From the NCBI GenBank assembly GCA_022822065.1, contig JAJECI010000008.1, forward strand, positions 117,254 to 181,253: a stretch of DNA of 64,000 bases. Reading direction: 5' to 3'. The notes beneath the pieces were generated by a model. That model was not told the origin of the DNA and did no database searches. It saw only the letters and a program-made list of their open reading frames with translations. A program made the translations under genes and the position numbers. This document shows positions 11,707 through 19,469 of the stretch, piece after piece. Origin of the DNA: Candidatus Dadabacteria bacterium (GTDB taxonomy: Bacteria; Desulfobacterota_D; UBA1144; Nemesobacterales; Nemesobacteraceae). Within the stretch, counting starts at the first letter, position 1. Every line of letters starts with the position of its first letter.

Positions 11707-13983
11707 ATGAGCCAGTTAGAAGCTGAGATAAGGAAGACGAAAAGGTATTTCTCAAGCGCGCGCTTTAAGGGAATAACCCGTCTTTACTCACCCCGCCAGG
11801 TGGTGGAGCAGAGAGGAACCATAAGAAGGGACTACTCGATCGCGAAAAACGCGGCGGATGCGTTCTACAAGAGACTCCGCGAGCTTTTCTCGGAGCGAAA
11901 GCAGATAACGTCCTTCGGCCCCTATTCGCCCGGCCAGGCGGTCATGATGAAAAGAAAGGGAATAGAGGGCATATATCTCGGCGGATGGGCCACTTCGGCA
12001 AAAGGATCGATCGGCGAGGACCAGGGAGCGGACTTGGCAAGCTATCCCCTCAGCCAGGTGCCGGACGAGGCGGCTCCCATAGTGAGAGCCCTTCTCGCCG
12101 CGGACAAGAACCAGAGATACAACCGCGCAAGGATGACCGAAAAGGAGAGGGAGCAGACTCCCGAGATTGACTACAGCCCATTCATAATCGCCGACGCGGA
12201 CACGGGACACGGCGGAGACGCCCACGTGAGAAATCTTATCAGAAGGTTCGTCGAGGCGGGAGTTACCGGCTATCACATAGAGGATCAGAAGCCCGGAACC
12301 AAGAAATGCGGTCACCAGGGCGGAAAGGTTCTCGTTCCTTCTGACGAGCAGATAAAGAGACTAAACGCCGCCCGGTTCCAGCTCGATATAATGGAAGTGC
12401 CCGGGATAATCGTTTCGAGAACCGACGCCGAAGCCGCCACCCTTCTTGACGGAAACGGGGACGAGCGCGACCAGCCGTTTGTCCTGGGAGCAACCAAACT
12501 CAACATCCCCAGTTACAAAAACGCCTACCTGACGATCCTGAGAAGGATCCACGAAAAAGGCGTAAAGGAGATAAACGGCCACAAGCTCTACAAGATAAGC
12601 AAAGAGACCTACGCGGAAACGGACAAGTGGCTTGAGGAAACCGGCATAGCGTCGTTTGTGGACGAGAACATAGAGGCAATGAAGGGGGACACCCAGGAAC
12701 TTGAAACCGCTCTTGATTCCATAGTCACCAAGTTCGTCGAGATATGGGAAGAGGAATCCGGTCTCACCACCTTCGGCGAAACGATAGAGACGCTCATGGA
12801 GTTTAACATGGAGCAGGGCGTTGAATTCGACATGACAGTCGAGCAGTGGAGGGAGTTTGCCAAGACCGCTTCCACGAAAGACGCCATGGAGAAGGCCGAT
12901 TCCCTAGGGATCGACTACATATGGGATCCCGAGATTTCAAGAACCCCCGAGGGATACTACCAGGTAAAAGGCGGAATCGAGTACTCCATCGCCAAGTCGC
13001 TTGCCGTGGCGCCCTTTGCCGACCTGCTCTGGATGGAAACCAAGACGGCGGACCTTGAGGACGCAAGGAAGTTCGCAGACGCCATCCACGAGGTTTTCCC
13101 GGACAAGATGCTTGCCTATAACCTCTCTCCCTCCTTTAACTGGGACACGACGGGAATGACAGACGAGGAAATGAAGAAATTCCCGGAAGAGATAGGGAAG
13201 CTCGGCTTCGTGTTCGATTTCATAACCTACGGAGGCCACCAGATCGACGGCATGGCCGCCGAAGAGTTCGCAACCGCGCTTATGGAAGACGGAATGCTCG
13301 CCCTGGCCCGCGTGCAGAGAAGGCTGAGGCTCATAGATTCGCCTTACAAGACCCCGCAGACCCATGTCGGGGGACCCCGCATGGACGGAGCGCTCGTCGC
13401 GAGTTCCGGAAGAACCGCGACCACGAAGGCTATGGGCAAGGGTTCGACGCAGTTCCAGCATCTGGTCCAGACGGAGGTTTCCATCAAGCTTCTTGAGGAG
13501 TGGTTTGAGTCCTGGGCGAGGCACTATAAAATCAAGGACACATTCACCGCCGAACTTAAGCCCCACACCGTGGGAACTTTCGTTCTTGAACTTAATATCC
13601 TAAACGGCAAGGGCGAGAAAGTGGCGGACGTCATATTCGAGATACTGCAGGACAGAAAAGGAGAGAAAATACTCACTGTAAGGGATGAGAATAATTTTGA
13701 TACATCCCTTCGCCGGAAACGCCTCGCGACTATACTTCACCTGTTCCTGATTCACCGTTACAGAACGGATTTCGTGCATTACGTAAGCCCCACGGAAGAC
13801 AACCTCATGCAGACCAAGGGAATGATGAAGCTCGGAATCTACGAATCGGTCAACACCGAAGTCGGCCATATAATAGTGACCAAGGTAAACGTCGATTACG
13901 TGAAGGAGCTGCTGAGCCCCGACCGCAGGGAACTCAAGAGGCTCATCGCGAAAAAAACAAAACCCCGTCGTAAAAAGAAATAA
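11707..13983 (+). CDS. aceA: isocitrate lyase, long (ICL2/eukaryote-like, 758 aa) form
   Basis: ICL signature KKCGHQGGK (K-[KR]-C-G-H), plus [11 protein letters not shown] and SRTDAEAA. The length indicates the long form with an inserted domain. It sits immediately downstream of aceB. Confidence 0.9.
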
Positions 13984-14001
13984 AAATTTCTTTTCTTGCA
14001 T

Positions 14002-14060
14002 GGCCAAGGCGAGAAGTGTCGCTTTTCGCCTTGGCCGCAGCTACTTTTATCTTGTTTTTT
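14002..14060 (+). terminator. intrinsic terminator after aceA (stem ggccaaggcgagaag / cttttcgccttggcc, then T-rich tract)
   Basis: Inverted repeat at 14002-14016 and 14022-14036, matching 14 of 15, with a 5-nt loop. It is followed by gcagctacttttatcttgttttttg. Confidence 0.5.
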
Positions 14061-14422
14061 GCGAGATATCTCTTTATCTCTTGCCGACAAAATCTCGCTT
14101 CCTGATCTGATAACCATGCTCCCATAGGAGTTATGGGCAACCATAACAACAAAGCAGGTGAATGGATGGTCTCTTACCGCTACGGTTTCATGAAGATGGA
14201 CGAGAACAGCCTGACGATTGAGATCGGATTACCATTCTACCAACATCTCGACAGTCTGCAGTTTAAAAGCGATTACAGTTTTACAATCGGCTGGCAGTTT
14301 TCAATCTGAGAAAAAAATCCGATTAAAAACTCTCGATTAACACAAAGGCCTAGTATTGCCATTGACATTCTTTCTCCTTCATAAATAAACCCCGAAAACT
14401 AGACGGAGTCTTAGTAGCGTAT

Positions 14423-15367
14423 TCACTCAGTATGTTGAGATTGTATTCTTGAGGTTAATCTATTTTTTCTCCGGCTTTTTGATGGCCACCGTAATATTCC
14501 ATCAAGCTCTTCAAGTAATAGCGGTTCCCCATAACCAACATCGTAAGGCTGAATTTCACCTGCAGGTTTCAAGCTTTCATCAAACCAGAGGATAGAAAGA
14601 CATTGATTCCATTCTTTTATAAAGATTGCTTCTTCACACAGCATGTCGTAATTTCCGACACCATTGTTGAACCAAATCTCAGTAGGAATCTCTTCATTGT
14701 ATTGCTCAGTCTCAGATCGGTTTTTGATCAGGTGAAAAGCTACGCTGTTTTGAGGAACCGGTACACCGATGTCAATCCATCCCTTAAGTTCGCGTAGAGA
14801 CTTTGAACTGGAAACATAGCGAATTTGACCTTCTTCAATAAGAACAAAGGAACAGAGCCCTTCACAGTTGGCGGCGAACCTGGAACCCGTAGAGTGTATA
14901 GAGGCTCTATAACGTTTTGACAGCTCCTTTATCGTATCGAGACATATATCAACATCCTCAATATCTTTCTTGAAAAAATCATATGGTAAGAGGCATTCCG
15001 CTGCAAAAATATCGCATAAAACCTCTTCCTCGGGACGCTGTCTGTAACTCATTAGATCGGTTGTTTTTATAGAACCATCTTGATGCTTTGAGGGTAGTTC
15101 CAGAATGATATGGCCAATTTCGTGTAGAATAGTAAACCGCTGTCTTTCCTCCGTATGTTTCCCGTTAACAGTGATAATGTTCCTTCCGTTTAAGAAAAAA
15201 GTTTGACCCGATTCTTCATCGTCAAGATCATGGCAAACTTCAATTTCAGCCCCAGCAACCGCAGAGTAAAGCTTAAGGTTAACAGGCACGGAATTTATTT
15301 CAGATTCCCTAATGAAATCGCGTGCCTTTAAAACGACTTCAAGTTCTTTCGCTTTGTGCTTACCCAT
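14423..15367 (-). CDS. CapP-like ImmA/IrrE-family Zn-metallopeptidase (CBASS regulator)
   Basis: HEIGH motif (FTILHEIGHIIL) in a DUF955/ImmA-like core, 314 aa. It overlaps the upstream HTH gene by 8 nt and is divergent from the CBASS operon. Confidence 0.75.
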   Translation of the reverse strand: MGKHKAKELEVVLKARDFIRESEINSVPVNLKLYSAVAGAEIEVCHDLDDEESGQTFFLNGRNIITVNGKHTEERQRFTILHEIGHIILELPSKHQDGSIKTTDLMSYRQRPEEEVLCDIFAAECLLPYDFFKKDIEDVDICLDTIKELSKRYRASIHSTGSRFAANCEGLCSFVLIEEGQIRYVSSSKSLRELKGWIDIGVPVPQNSVAFHLIKNRSETEQYNEEIPTEIWFNNGVGNYDMLCEEAIFIKEWNQCLSILWFDESLKPAGEIQPYDVGYGEPLLLEELDGILRWPSKSRRKNRLTSRIQSQHTE

Positions 15368-15737
15368 TCTTCATAAACTCTTCCAACCGTTCAGCCCACT
15401 TGCGCCATTCATCCTTAGTTTTAGGTCGTCTTCCCCTGAAGCTCATAGATGATAAAGACTCGAAAAGTTCTATTGGGCGTTCTTCGTCCTCAAGAAAAAC
15501 CTCAATAAGCTGGTCACTGACTGTTTGTCCGACAAGGAGGTGTAATAGGTGTGCCCTGCGCCTATCAAGCTTGAGGGTATTAATGAGGGAATCGACGGTT
15601 TGTTCAGACGGAGAGGTTCTTTCTTCCTTTTCCAAGCGATGAATATAAGTATAGTGGATCCCGCATAATTTCCCGAGTTCTCGAAGAGTTAAACCACGTC
15701 TCTTGCGAAACTTTCTCAAAGCGTAACCAAAAGACAT
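15360..15737 (-). CDS. CapH-like XRE-family HTH transcriptional repressor (CBASS regulator)
   Basis: N-terminal HTH LRKFRKRRGLTLRELGKLCGIHYTYIHRLEKEER (XRE/Cro-type), 125 aa. First gene of a two-gene operon with the ImmA peptidase. Confidence 0.75.
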   Translation of the reverse strand: MSFGYALRKFRKRRGLTLRELGKLCGIHYTYIHRLEKEERTSPSEQTVDSLINTLKLDRRRAHLLHLLVGQTVSDQLIEVFLEDEERPIELFESLSSMSFRGRRPKTKDEWRKWAERLEEFMKNG

Positions 15738-15759
15738 TCTATATTTCTTAAAAAAATTC

Positions 15760-15788
15760 TTGACAAAAAAAGAAAGATTGATTATTCT
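15760..15788 (+). promoter_or_regulatory. candidate sigma70 promoter for the CBASS operon (TTGACA-17 nt-TATTCT) in the capH/CBASS divergent intergenic region
   Basis: TTGACA at 15760-15765, 17-nt spacer, TATTCT at 15783-15788. Downstream are two CAACATT-containing repeats (acagacaacattcta and tctgtcaacattata) that could be CapH operator half-sites. Confidence 0.4.
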
Positions 15789-15973
15789 GTTGCCTGTACA
15801 GACAACATTCTATGCTAATTCACTAAAACAAAATAAAATTTAGCTCGATGAACATGTATAAAGCGTAGCTTGTTTCTGTCAACATTATAATAGAAACTGC
15901 AGATTTTCTCAAGCGTTTTTTACCGTTGGTCTTAAAAAATAGGGCTGAGAGAGAAAAAGAATTCGACGAAGTT

Positions 15974-16969
15974 ATGAGAAAGGATACTGAAATAGCGAAA
16001 AAACGAATCCTATGTATTGACGGAGGGGGAGTCCTCGGCACTTTTCCTGCAGCATTTCTCGCTGAACTGGAAAAACACCTTGATCACCCTATTGGAAAGT
16101 ATTTCGACCTAATTGCGGGAAGTTCCACAGGAGGAATTATTGCACTTGGTCTCAGCATGGGAATTTCCGCATCGCAACTGTTGAATTTCTACGAAAACAG
16201 AAGTTATGAGGTATTTGGTAAAAATAATAGACCGTTTCTGAGTTTTTTCCTCAGAAAAATCCGAGCAGTTAAATGGTGCTTTCTAAGAAAGTATAACTCT
16301 GAACCTCTCCGAACTGTTCTTTATGATGTGTTTGGGGAAAAACGTATAGGTGAAGCGAAAACCCGGTTACTTATTCCAGCTTGGAATCCGGTGGCTAATT
16401 CCGTCTACATCTATAAAACAGCACATCATCCCCGTCTAAAAACAGATTATAAATCAAGCGCGGTTGATGTAGCTATGGCGACATCAGCAGCTCCTTCCTA
16501 TTTCAAGCAACACGTTACACAGCATGGTGTTGTCCTCATTGACGGCGGCATATGGGCAAACAACCCCGTAGCGATTGCTGTTGTTGAGGCCATCTCCCTG
16601 CTGAACTGGCCAAGAGAGTCACTTCGCATCTTAAGCCTAGGGTGTCTGCAGGAGGCATACAATATACCAAAACACGCTGGCCTCGGAATGCTTAACTCAA
16701 AAATTATTAACTTATTCATGGACGGACAGTCTCAAGGGGCTATGGGTATCGCAAAGCTGTTAACGGGTCATGAACACGAACGTACCGCTATATACAGGGT
16801 GAATCAGACGGTTCCATATAATACCTACAAAATGGACGACACAAAGACCATACAAGACTTAAAAGGACTCGGCCATTCCGAGGGGCGAAGTTGGCAACCC
16901 AACCTTGAGGCTATATTTTTCGACAAACCGGCAGAAGTTTTCAAACCATATTATAAGTTGGAGGATTAA
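15974..16969 (+). CDS. patatin-like phospholipase (CBASS effector, CapV/CapE-like)
   Basis: Oxyanion-hole motif ILCIDGGGVLG, nucleophile motif GSSTGG (GxSxG) and catalytic DGG in IDGGIWANNP. Start is taken at ATG 15974. The ORF track starts at an in-frame TTG at 15926, which is less likely. Confidence 0.85.
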   Translation: MRKDTEIAKKRILCIDGGGVLGTFPAAFLAELEKHLDHPIGKYFDLIAGSSTGGIIALGLSMGISASQLLNFYENRSYEVFGKNNRPFLSFFLRKIRAVKWCFLRKYNSEPLRTVLYDVFGEKRIGEAKTRLLIPAWNPVANSVYIYKTAHHPRLKTDYKSSAVDVAMATSAAPSYFKQHVTQHGVVLIDGGIWANNPVAIAVVEAISLLNWPRESLRILSLGCLQEAYNIPKHAGLGMLNSKIINLFMDGQSQGAMGIAKLLTGHEHERTAIYRVNQTVPYNTYKMDDTKTIQDLKGLGHSEGRSWQPNLEAIFFDKPAEVFKPYYKLED

Positions 16970-16971
16970 GA

Positions 16972-18171
16972 ATGAGAATTGATGAAGCTAGATATTCTAA
17001 CTTTTTAGACGAAGTTGCAGGAAACCTAGATATTTCCCCGAGCAAGTACAGAGATGCTGTCGACCGCTACCAAGCTGTTGCGAAATGGCTCGAAGGCGGA
17101 GATTACCCCGGACCTTCTGATTCTGGGTTAGACATCTATCCACAAGGCTCATTTCGTTTAGGTACAGTCACGAGACCAATAAGGAACAGTATTGAAGCAG
17201 ATTATGACATTGATCTTGTGTGCGAAGTCCCCTTGCTAAAAGAGTGGGCCAAGCCTGAGTACGTAAAGCAGTTAGTCGGCGACAGACTAAAAGAACACGA
17301 CATGTATAGGAGAATGCTAGATGAAGAAGGTAGGCGATGCTGGACGCTAATATATTCTGAGCAAGACAATATTGGCTTCCACCTGGATGTTCTGCCGTCA
17401 GTCCCCTATTTGGGAGGCTACCTAAACACGGCGATTGCGATAACGGACAAAGATCTTTCCCTTTACAGGTGGTCAATAAGCGATCCTAAGGGTTACGCTC
17501 AATGGTTTGATGATAGAAACATGTCCGCATTTAACCTGGTATCTGCTGAACAGAAGAGACTTATTCAAAATCAAGCCCCGGAAATATACGCAAGAATCGA
17601 AGACGTACCTAATCAATTAGTTCGTACTCCCCTTCAACGTGCAATTCAAATTATGAAACGTCACCGTGACATTAAGTTCAATGACACAAGATCTATTGAG
17701 TATGCCCCGATTTCAATAATCATTACGACTCTCTCCGCATATTTCTATCGAAACGAACCAGATGTCTACTCCGCTCTGAAGAATATTGTAGGTAGTTTAA
17801 ATGCACATTCTGCCCTATTTGAAAATCGGGTTCTTGATCCTGCTCTCAAATCAATTACTCCCATAAAAAGGACCTCTGATGGCAAATGGCATATAGGCAA
17901 TCCTGTTAATCCAGAGGAAAACTTTGCAGACAGGTGGCATGAGAATAACCATGCCAGAGCAAAAGCATTCTTTCAGTGGTTGGACTCTCTACAAAAAGAC
18001 CTTATTAACATACTTAATGAAAACAATCGAGACCTAGCAAAAAGCACCCTTATCTCAGCCCTAGGCAGTGTCCCAGTATCGCAAAATCTGGAACTGATAA
18101 TCCCTCCTAAAGTAATCGAAAGCCCCCCGAAGATTCATATTTCTAGGCCAGCGCAACCGTGGAAAGACTAG
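16972..18171 (+). CDS. cGAS/DncV-like nucleotidyltransferase (CD-NTase, SMODS domain) of CBASS
   Basis: Pol-beta-type NTase motif QGSFRLGT...DYDIDLV (GS...[DE]h[DE]h), with a third acidic residue in GFHLDVLPS. GGAGG Shine-Dalgarno 7 nt upstream. It lies between a patatin effector and an E2-like gene and is translationally coupled to the next gene (TAG-a-ATG). Confidence 0.8.
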   Translation: MRIDEARYSNFLDEVAGNLDISPSKYRDAVDRYQAVAKWLEGGDYPGPSDSGLDIYPQGSFRLGTVTRPIRNSIEADYDIDLVCEVPLLKEWAKPEYVKQLVGDRLKEHDMYRRMLDEEGRRCWTLIYSEQDNIGFHLDVLPSVPYLGGYLNTAIAITDKDLSLYRWSISDPKGYAQWFDDRNMSAFNLVSAEQKRLIQNQAPEIYARIEDVPNQLVRTPLQRAIQIMKRHRDIKFNDTRSIEYAPISIIITTLSAYFYRNEPDVYSALKNIVGSLNAHSALFENRVLDPALKSITPIKRTSDGKWHIGNPVNPEENFADRWHENNHARAKAFFQWLDSLQKDLINILNENNRDLAKSTLISALGSVPVSQNLELIIPPKVIESPPKIHISRPAQPWKD

Positions 18172-18172
18172 A

Positions 18173-18901
18173 ATGAAAGGCAAAATCAGAAAAGAGATTT
18201 GCGAGTTGAAGCAAACTTACAAATGCCTCACAGACATATCTCATCGAAAACAGGAAACAATAATAAAAGGCCCCCTTTCATTTGAAGCGTCTTTTGACGA
18301 GTTCCCGGTGATTGTTGAGTGCTTTGATATTGAACTAGCTATTCCTGACTCTTACCCAGAAGTCCTTCCAATTGTACGAGAAACAGGTGGAAGAATCGAC
18401 CAAGATTATGAACACCTGAATCAGGATGGAACCCTTTGTCTTACTACACCGATTGAGAAACGCCTGCTTTTTCTAGAGCAAAAATCTTTACTCGGATTCG
18501 TAAATCTTCTTGTTATCCCATATTTATATGGTTACTCCTACTGGAAAAAGTATGGTCATCACCCTTTTGGTGAGCGTGCACACGGAGTTGAGGGAATTAT
18601 TCAGTACTATCAGGATGAGTTAGGTTTAAGCGGTAATGTACATATACTAGCAATGCTCGCTTTTCTTTTCCAGTTCGGTTATCGTGGCCATCTTCTCTGT
18701 CCCTGCGGAAGCGGATTTAAAGTTCGGGAATGTCACAGCGAAACTTTATTAAAGCTTCATAAATATCACTCTAATCACACCTTAAGAAATGATTTCTTAT
18801 ATCTACTTTCTCTTTGCTTAGAAAAAAAAGAAGAGTTCTCTGAAGAGCTTTCAAAACAGATAGATCGAATACTAAAAAAAGAAAAATTAAGAAAAAAGTA
18901 A
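18173..18901 (+). CDS. Cap2-like E2 (UBC-fold) protein without E1 or JAB partner, with a C-terminal SEC-C-type zinc-binding motif
   Basis: IELAIPDSYPEVLPIVRE resembles the E2 block (FP.DYPFKPPKV.F). HLNQDGTLCLTTP resembles the HPN-x(n)-G-ICL active-site Cys region. LLCPCGSGFKVRECH is a SEC-C-like CPCGSG.K...CH metal knuckle. Confidence 0.65.
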   Translation: MKGKIRKEICELKQTYKCLTDISHRKQETIIKGPLSFEASFDEFPVIVECFDIELAIPDSYPEVLPIVRETGGRIDQDYEHLNQDGTLCLTTPIEKRLLFLEQKSLLGFVNLLVIPYLYGYSYWKKYGHHPFGERAHGVEGIIQYYQDELGLSGNVHILAMLAFLFQFGYRGHLLCPCGSGFKVRECHSETLLKLHKYHSNHTLRNDFLYLLSLCLEKKEEFSEELSKQIDRILKKEKLRKK

Positions 18902-19469
18902 AGACTAAGCTTTCACTGATGCGGAGGAAGTTTTTGGATTTTCCTCAAAAAATCCCACGGCAAGTAATTCATGACAAATCAGGAAAAAATTTAATCAGAG
19001 AATACAACGAATTTCAGCACTTTATCTTTCGAAGTAATAAGGACTTCGATAGATGCAGGTACGGGTGTAAAAGCAAAACATTCTAACGATCGTAGGTCTT
19101 TGACAGTTGCTTTTCAACATGGCAATTCTGAAGCCGAGAAAACTCTAAAAGCTTGTGGAGCAAAATTTTAAAAAGTAACCAAGAGAAAAGAACTTTTCCG
19201 AAGAAACCAAGTCTCACAGAACCGATTCCCACAACGATGGATCAAGTAGTTAAGTCGTTCCTCGCCAATAATCCCAAGCCTAAGAAACCTCCCGAGAAAA
19301 GTAAAAAGAAGCAAACACCCTCACACAGAGCATTATAACTTGGCTATCATTATATATAATCCCCTATATTTTTTGTAGTAATCGATACCGAAAACTGTAT
19401 TCTAATCTGTTCAGAAAAGGAGCAGTGTCTCAACACGCCTCCTGAAAATACGGAACCGAGAGTAATTCG

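Follow-up and report, generated by a model that had tools for sequence, protein, structure and literature searches.

The window analyzed here is a stretch of 64,000 nucleotides (nt) from Candidatus Dadabacteria bacterium (contig JAJECI010000008.1), and our subject is a gene at 18173..18901 of its plus strand (the end coordinate counts the stop codon), which encodes a 242-amino acid (aa) protein resembling E2 ubiquitin-conjugating enzymes and read as the regulator of a CBASS, an anti-phage signaling system based on cyclic oligonucleotides. It closes a three-gene operon, in which it is preceded by a CapV-like patatin-like phospholipase effector (15926..16969, plus strand; PADLOC phospholipase effector, E 1e-100) and a CdnG-like CD-NTase (a nucleotidyltransferase resembling cGAS/DncV) of 399 aa (16972..18171, plus strand; PADLOC cyclase, E 6e-113; Pfam SMODS and DncV-like NTFase above threshold). 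The patatin gene also matches the NCBIfam family 'CBASS cGAMP-activated phospholipase' (246 bits; cut-off 200), the best solved relatives of the CD-NTase are 9woo_A (E 5e-39) and SmCdnG, 8hsb_A (E 4e-31), and a single base separates the CD-NTase stop codon from the E2 start codon. Behind the ubiquitin-conjugating (UBC)-like core of this E2 lies a short motif of the SecA/SEC-C type, whose conservation across a large family argues for a metal site.

Divergent from the operon are a capH-like helix-turn-helix (HTH) repressor (15360..15737, minus strand; PADLOC capH, E 5e-11; Pfam HTH_31 and HTH_3) and a capP-like ImmA/IrrE (M78) metallopeptidase, a putative regulator of the island (14423..15367, minus strand; PADLOC capP, E 4e-49; Pfam Peptidase_M78, E 5e-15). 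A repeat search of the divergent promoter region found a 20-bp palindrome, TGTTGCCTGTACAGACAACA (15788..15807, not assigned to a strand), which adjoins a promoter-like site (15760-15788) and may serve as an operator for CapH. The divergent capP/capH pair is present in about 20 related loci, and the five-gene cassette is found again in other genomes. Among the neighbors, Pfam and PADLOC identify no E1 or JAB/Cap3 gene, nor do they find an E1 (ThiF-like) domain within the 242-aa E2, so the statement of a first-pass annotation of this DNA that the protein has neither an E1 nor an isopeptidase partner holds for the locus. As a CD-NTase, a cyclic nucleotide-responsive effector and an E2 without E1 or JAB are found together, the locus is, judging by its gene content, an anti-phage operon of the E2-only ('type II short') CBASS type.

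The E2 itself is a full-length member of a family that PADLOC already models (CBASS E2, PDLC00871; E 7e-75, protein residues 3-237 against model positions 5-237 of 241), and six more PADLOC models named E2 or E1-E2 (216-232 positions) match through the motif region. Its AlphaFold2 (AF2) model, built with 34 homologues, is confident (mean predicted local distance difference test score, pLDDT, 89.3; predicted template modeling score, pTM, 0.82), and Foldseek supports a UBC/E2 fold for this model, bearing out the E2-like assignment made at first pass. The predicted UBC-like core (aa 1-168; 18173..18676, plus strand) consists of an N-terminal helix, a four-strand meander, an active-site loop and helices. 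All three sequence blocks that the first-pass annotation had picked out are present in the protein: PDSYPEVLPIVRE at aa 58-70 (nt 18344-18382), HLNQDGTLCL at aa 81-90 (nt 18413-18442), and LLCPCGSGFKVRECH at aa 174-188 (nt 18692-18736). The second block contains the putative E2 active site, H81-L-N-Q-D-G-T-L-C89 (HxN...C; 18413..18439, plus strand), in which C89 is the presumed catalytic cysteine.

For conservation we relied on a HMMER search of 1.84 billion representatives, which places the E2 in a family of 1939 50%-identity clusters at E<=1e-3. The best 150 of these 1939 clusters, with representatives at 29-52% identity, were aligned with the window protein. H81 and C89 are invariant in this alignment (151/151), as is P66, and both residues are invariant in a second alignment as well. 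A loop between two helices, H130-P-F-G-E-R-A-H137-G (18560..18586, plus strand), is likewise strongly conserved (H137 is invariant, His in 150/150, with P131 in 146/151, E134 in 126/151 and G138 in 134/150), and it may have a catalytic or lid role.

The third block holds the SecA/SEC-C-type knuckle, C176-P-C178-G-S180-G-F-K-V-R-E-C187-H188 (CPCGSGFKVRECH, aa 176-188; 18698..18736, plus strand). Its spacing, C-x-C-x8-C-H, is exactly that of the zinc peptides at the C-terminus of SecA, and the CPCGSG hexapeptide is the same in both. SecA zinc peptides are also the top sequence matches in the PDB, both with the single protein (E 0.15-0.25) and with the family profile (E 0.0025-0.007), and the profile matches include the C-terminal peptide of YchJ. 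The knuckle thus shares with the SecA metal-binding domain (PF02810, found also in YecA and YchJ) its ligand spacing, its hexapeptide, a Ser at +4 (counting from C176) and basic residues between the ligand pairs, the family keeping K/R at +6, +7 and +9. The likeness to SEC-C domains proposed at first pass therefore stands for spacing, hexapeptide and Ser+4; it does not extend to the Pfam SEC-C score, which falls below the gathering threshold (9.6 bits against 20.4, relatives scoring 7-18.7 bits), or to the aromatic residue at +8 (Tyr-893 of SecA). At +8 the window E2 has V184, and the family has L in 63, I in 32, V in 16 and F in 9 of 138. The knuckle also differs from its SecA counterpart in lying inside the protein, where it is predicted to be packed, and not on a flexible linker at the very C-terminus, and in having no link to Sec translocation.

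With a motif this short and a sub-threshold Pfam score, one could suppose that CXCX8CH is a chance or convergent likeness to SEC-C that binds no metal. However, the pattern C.C.{8}C[CH] arose in only 77/200,000 shuffles of the E2 and occurs once across all six frames of the window, and CPCGSG is the very hexapeptide of SecA. It is also too well kept: the motif is found in 119/120 close homologues, and strict CXCX8CH in 138/150 of the divergent representatives, with five more carrying a one-residue insertion before the His and the remaining motif-less representatives being fragments or frameshifts. By column, C176 and C178 are each conserved in 147/149, C187 in 147/148 and H188 in 146/149 sequences, while S180 is kept in 136/149, so that in these alignments the conservation of the knuckle ligands nearly reaches that of the catalytic pair H81/C89. 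This argument rests on the HMMER representatives because our scan of genome contigs used two seed patterns, one of which contained the CPC motif and biased the loci it recovered (L003-L053) toward motif-bearing E2s.

A further point against chance comes from a Vibrio/Shewanella-type subfamily (PADLOC PDLC00859; P0271-P0390), in which 115/120 homologues read C-P-C-G-C-G-x-R-L-G-x-C-(D/N)-Y. Here position +12 has lost its His (H in 1/115), and at +4 an invariant Cys (115/115) stands in place of the Ser; the C,C,C,C pattern recurs in E2s on Aliarcobacter and Cytobacillus plasmids. Since the loss of one ligand is matched by the gain of another, four ligands are kept, which speaks for a genuine metal site. 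Of the arguments available, we consider this compensatory swap, seen in the alignments, the strongest one for metal binding as the selected property of the family, and a metal-free resemblance seems to us very improbable. The incoming Cys occupies the position of SecA Ser-889, whose side chain faces the metal and tunes metal preference (bioRxiv 10.1101/613315). We infer that C176, C178, C187 and H188 form a four-ligand site, with S180 facing the metal by analogy with SecA. That metal may be Zn or Fe: SecA-like domains bind Zn in vitro, yet prefer Fe, and need the conserved Ser (bioRxiv 10.1101/613315).

Contrary to the first-pass annotation, which had the protein end with the motif, 54 residues follow it. 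In the AF2 model the UBC elements run to about residue 168; the knuckle (169-188) is modeled as a loop, which includes two bridge residues, and a short helix (pLDDT ~90-92), and DSSP assigns three helices (189-198, 201-221 and 224-241; pLDDT ~85-93 except for the last residues) to the C-terminal extension (aa 189-242; 18737..18898, plus strand). This extension has no convincing counterpart in the PDB. To place the knuckle relative to C89, we also ran a direct-coupling analysis on 438 family sequences (effective number, Meff, ~280), and discarded it: aromatic columns dominated its top pairs, and the beta-sheet was not recovered. The most probable role of the knuckle is that of a structural staple, with Zn or Fe as its metal, which would fix the additional C-terminal subdomain in position right behind the UBC core.

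In SecA, a domain of this type serves as a docking module: it binds SecB and ribosomes, and SecA's binding to membranes is disturbed when metal binding by the domain is disrupted (bioRxiv 10.1101/613315). The knuckle of the E2 might similarly dock on acidic phospholipid or membrane, the ribosome, another protein or nucleic acid, and so place the CD-NTase-E2 complex or assist it in sensing infection. Nothing in our results points to the nucleic-acid binding about which the first-pass annotation asked. Consistent with this, basic residues within the motif are kept both in the main family and in the C4 subfamily (R at +7 in 112/115), and the effector at our locus is a membrane-acting phospholipase. 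However, the motif is internal and confidently predicted to be packed between helices, with none of the flexible tail seen in SecA, and Tyr-893 of the SecA-like domains is replaced by L/I/V. Moreover, operons with knuckle-type E2s carry unrelated effectors (patatin, SAVED-HNH, 2TM, S-4TM and Pycsar TM), leaving no obvious common external partner. We consider docking to be an improbable function.

What such an E2 would do can be approached through the system of Serratia marcescens, SmE2/SmCdnG (PDB 8HSB); facts on this pair are taken from the preprint of Yan et al. (published as Nat Microbiol 2024;9:1566) and from Xiao et al. (mLife 2026, PMC12948482). SmE2 alone, without E1 or ATP, cleaves off the residue after G406 of its CdnG; its C101 forms a thioester, for which H87 is required, and then isopeptide bonds, so that SmCdnG is linked to K159 of the E2 or to other cGAS molecules, a linkage needed for defense (bioRxiv 10.1101/2022.05.25.493364; PMC12948482). 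The preprint further reports that SmE2 is regulated by pH through a C-terminal loop and has two conserved cysteines only (bioRxiv 10.1101/2022.05.25.493364). The question of what an E2 without an E1 conjugates, raised by the first-pass annotation, is thus largely answered for S. marcescens, where the target is the C-terminus of its own CD-NTase.

The two systems share an E2-only organization, a CdnG-type CD-NTase, the HxN...C block, an E2 gene directly downstream of the CD-NTase and a conserved CD-NTase tail. The E2s themselves are less alike. SmE2, of 159-162 residues, has a flexible loop with K151, H152 and K159 at its end, and the E2 of a lactococcal type II CBASS is of similar size (155 aa; PMC11381338), whereas the window E2 has 242 residues, including the knuckle and three further helices. 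Judging from these lengths, the knuckle would follow the UBC core roughly where SmE2 has its flexible, active-site-covering loop. The operons differ as well: S. marcescens has a 2TM-SAVED effector and an Exo gene, while the window has a patatin, no Exo gene, and capH and capP. The other known arrangement, the E1-E2 fusion Cap2 working with the JAB protein Cap3, differs in the adenylation domain and the Cap3 that the window lacks, and Cap2 has no metal knuckle of the SecA/SEC-C type. With neither E1 nor Cap3 at the locus, any mechanism must be ATP- and E1-independent.

The CD-NTase at our locus ends in the tail PAQPWKD (aa 393-399; 18148..18168, plus strand), the presumed recognition and processing site of the E2; by analogy with SmCdnG/SmE2, the E2 would process this tail. 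An E2 gene directly after the CD-NTase is found in 51 genome loci from many phyla, and the partner C-termini end in [A/P]-[K/R/Q]-P-W-x-x(1-2), both in 53 locus partners and in 118 further CD-NTases. In contrast to this KPW-(R/K)-x tail of the knuckle subfamily, SmCdnG has a tail ...Y-G-E. The residue after the Trp is R in 32, G in 8, K in 5 and another residue in 8 of the 53 locus partners, and R in 93, G in 9, K in 7, M in 5 and another residue in 4 of the 118 further CD-NTases; every tail of both sets extends at least two residues past the Trp. A C-terminal Gly on the CD-NTase, such as G406 of SmCdnG, is a further mark of E2-only CBASS, and PAQPWKD has no Gly. If the Trp aligns with Y405 of SmCdnG, then Lys or Arg takes the position of the ligated G406, and G406R abolishes linkage in SmCdnG (bioRxiv 10.1101/2022.05.25.493364). 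The pocket, the chemistry or the scissile bond may therefore differ in the knuckle subfamily. The last 63 residues of the CD-NTase have no sequence match in the PDB, so that a residue-level alignment to SmCdnG could not be drawn. When the tail residue (R/K versus the rest) was compared with E2 columns, some acidic columns and position 91 differed, a comparison that is confounded by phylogeny.

These tails also bear on the possibility that the E2 does not conjugate at all, but is a tail-binding protein or protease that caps, trims or sequesters the cyclase. The predominance of R/K after the Trp (37/55 locus partners and 100/118 CD-NTases) over Gly (8 and 9, respectively), together with the loss of SmCdnG linkage on G406R, is what such a protein would lead one to expect. 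However, the ligated residue could be another position of the tail, the catalytic Cys and His are invariant, and the acyl-enzyme chemistry of SmE2 begins with proteolysis in any case. Natural CD-NTase-E2 fusions, moreover, mimic a covalent complex. A non-conjugating E2 thus seems to us improbable.

The pairing of knuckle-type E2 and tail reaches beyond this CBASS. On a Chryseobacterium plasmid (L057, 3419-5540; NZ_MN657149.1), a PycTM effector is followed by a Pycsar cyclase (PADLOC PycC, E 2e-116) ending in ...NRPWLKRS and, directly downstream, by a knuckle-type E2; divergent genes at this locus encode an ImmA/IrrE peptidase and a sigma factor. On a Runella plasmid (L054, 3902-5639; NC_015694.1), a knuckle-type E2 (CLCGSEKKYKLCH) comes after a metallo-beta-lactamase (MBL)-fold hydrolase with the C-terminus ...NAKPWQRG. 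The tail is also found in the linker of natural fusions, namely the CD-NTase-E2 proteins P0161 and P0201 and the MBL-fold-KPW-E2 protein P0260. At the locus of P0161 (L060, 2284-6956, on an ENA contig), the CD-NTase-E2 fusion has 651 aa and the HTH and M78 regulators are likewise fused (412 aa), the order of the operon being otherwise that of the window. The E2 beside an MBL-fold hydrolase, and the P0260 fusion, indicate that the E2 module is not restricted to nucleotide cyclases, and the recurrence of the tail in Pycsar, MBL-fold and fusion settings suggests that E2 and tail behave as a portable module.

The widest generalization would be that SEC-C-type E2s are general E1-independent transpeptidases of degron-like [K/R]PW-x tails, which ligate the Arg or Lys in place of Gly and were recruited several times over to control defense enzymes as different as CD-NTases, Pycsar cyclases and MBL-fold hydrolases, with the knuckle as an iron or redox-sensitive switch that ties enzyme activation to changes brought about in the cell by infection; we put this forward as a decidedly speculative extension. 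For the C4 type, a plasmid of Vibrio gigantis (L059, 3750-5642) carries such an E2 beside a CD-NTase that appears to be the protein of PDB 9WOO, as its N-terminal sequence matches the printed residues of 9woo_A. PDB sequence searches returned no solved structure for the knuckle-bearing E2 subfamily, the BFVD library of viral structures gave nothing significant, and tblastn found no match in phage genomes.

A knuckle that acts as a regulatory switch can also be considered for the window protein itself, in which loss, exchange or oxidation of Fe or Zn under infection or stress would lock or unlock the C-terminal subdomain and so gate tail processing and CD-NTase activation. Several observations are in keeping with such a role: the iron preference of SecA-like domains and their need for a Ser that is kept here; the autoinhibitory nature of the SecA domain, relieved by partner binding (bioRxiv 10.1101/613315); the reactive oxygen species-induced dimerization of YchJ through cysteines of its C-terminal region (PMC13377102); the pH regulation of SmE2 through its C-terminal loop; and the conservation of the ligands at the level of the catalytic residues. 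However, a structural role explains high conservation equally well, a site that can turn from C3H to C4 between subfamilies looks more like one for which any tight tetrahedral arrangement suffices than like a tuned sensor, and the aromatic at +8 of SecA, YecA and YchJ is L/I/V in this family. We think a switch rather unlikely, and prefer the staple.

Taken together, we favor, with moderate confidence, the reading of this protein as the E2 regulator of an E2-only CBASS that processes or ligates the tail of its CD-NTase independently of E1, with the knuckle as a structural metal staple. In such a scheme, CapH and CapP would control transcription of the operon. The E2 would dock on the C-terminal region of the CD-NTase and thread its ...PAQPW-K-D tail into the active site, where C89, aided by H81 and probably H137, would attack the tail without E1 or ATP. 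This attack would free the last residue or residues and yield a thioester, and isopeptide links would follow, joining CD-NTase to E2 or CD-NTases into chains, as in SmE2/SmCdnG. The synthesis of cyclic dinucleotides would thereby be primed, the phospholipase activated and the infection aborted.

Several points weigh against this reading. Two Pfam families that it would lead one to expect, Prok-E2_B (19.3 bits against a gathering cut-off of 25.4) and SEC-C, score below threshold for the protein. SmE2, from which the chemistry is borrowed, is a relative at the level of the fold, with 12% identity to the window E2 over 120 residues, and the family profile finds no sequence match to it. The Gly that is ligated in SmCdnG is replaced by Lys here and by Arg in most relatives. 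The position of the staple near the active site is derived from sequence order and predicted secondary structure only. Finally, in an AF2 model of the P0161 fusion (mean pLDDT 58.7) the E2 half is confident, the CD-NTase half and the linker with the tail are not (pLDDT 27-31 over 341-404), and the tail is not docked, a result that comes from a shallow alignment and does not count as a negative.

The five genes form an island of low GC content (0.35-0.45 against 0.52-0.57 in the flanks), placed between isocitrate lyase and mgtE (window ~14000-19400). A low-GC cassette between these two genes suggests horizontal acquisition. The flanking genes encode isocitrate lyase, MgtE, an MBL-fold protein, RecF and a Cdc48-like ATPase. 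The isocitrate lyase (11707-13983) is unusually long at 758 aa, with Pfam ICL matching two stretches, and has a C-terminal extension. Downstream of the E2, an AT-rich stretch (18919-19400, GC ~0.35-0.41) contains only small open reading frames of 55 and 61 aa, the former with no Pfam match; the stretch may be a remnant edge of the island.

The first-pass annotation treated this protein as a fusion that seemed uncharacterized. The fusion is no oddity: with 1939 clusters, the knuckle is the norm in a very large, catalogued subfamily. That it seemed uncharacterized agrees with the literature, in that our full-text searches, which combined SEC-C with CBASS, SMODS, CD-NTase, Prok-E2 or ubiquitin-conjugating, turned up no paper describing the knuckle in E2s, and the SmE2 papers (bioRxiv 10.1101/2022.05.25.493364; PMC12948482) make no mention of zinc, SEC-C or SecA, though RefSeq already names several plasmid-borne members, and one protein from a metagenome-assembled genome, 'SEC-C metal-binding domain-containing protein'. 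As far as we have found, therefore, the E2 family is catalogued, and its putative conserved metal site and non-Gly partner tail are apparently undescribed.

What is known of the mechanism of E2-only CBASS all comes from a single short E2, SmE2. The knuckle subfamily is much larger and phylogenetically broad, and it differs from SmE2 in an additional, predicted metal site, in the [K/R]PW-(R/K/G)-x tail of its partners and in its use outside CBASS. If the knuckle is required, it would add a cofactor, and possibly a control point, to the E1-independent ubiquitin-like chemistry of bacteria; and if the ligated residue is truly Arg or Lys, this would widen the range of what the E2 fold can transfer.

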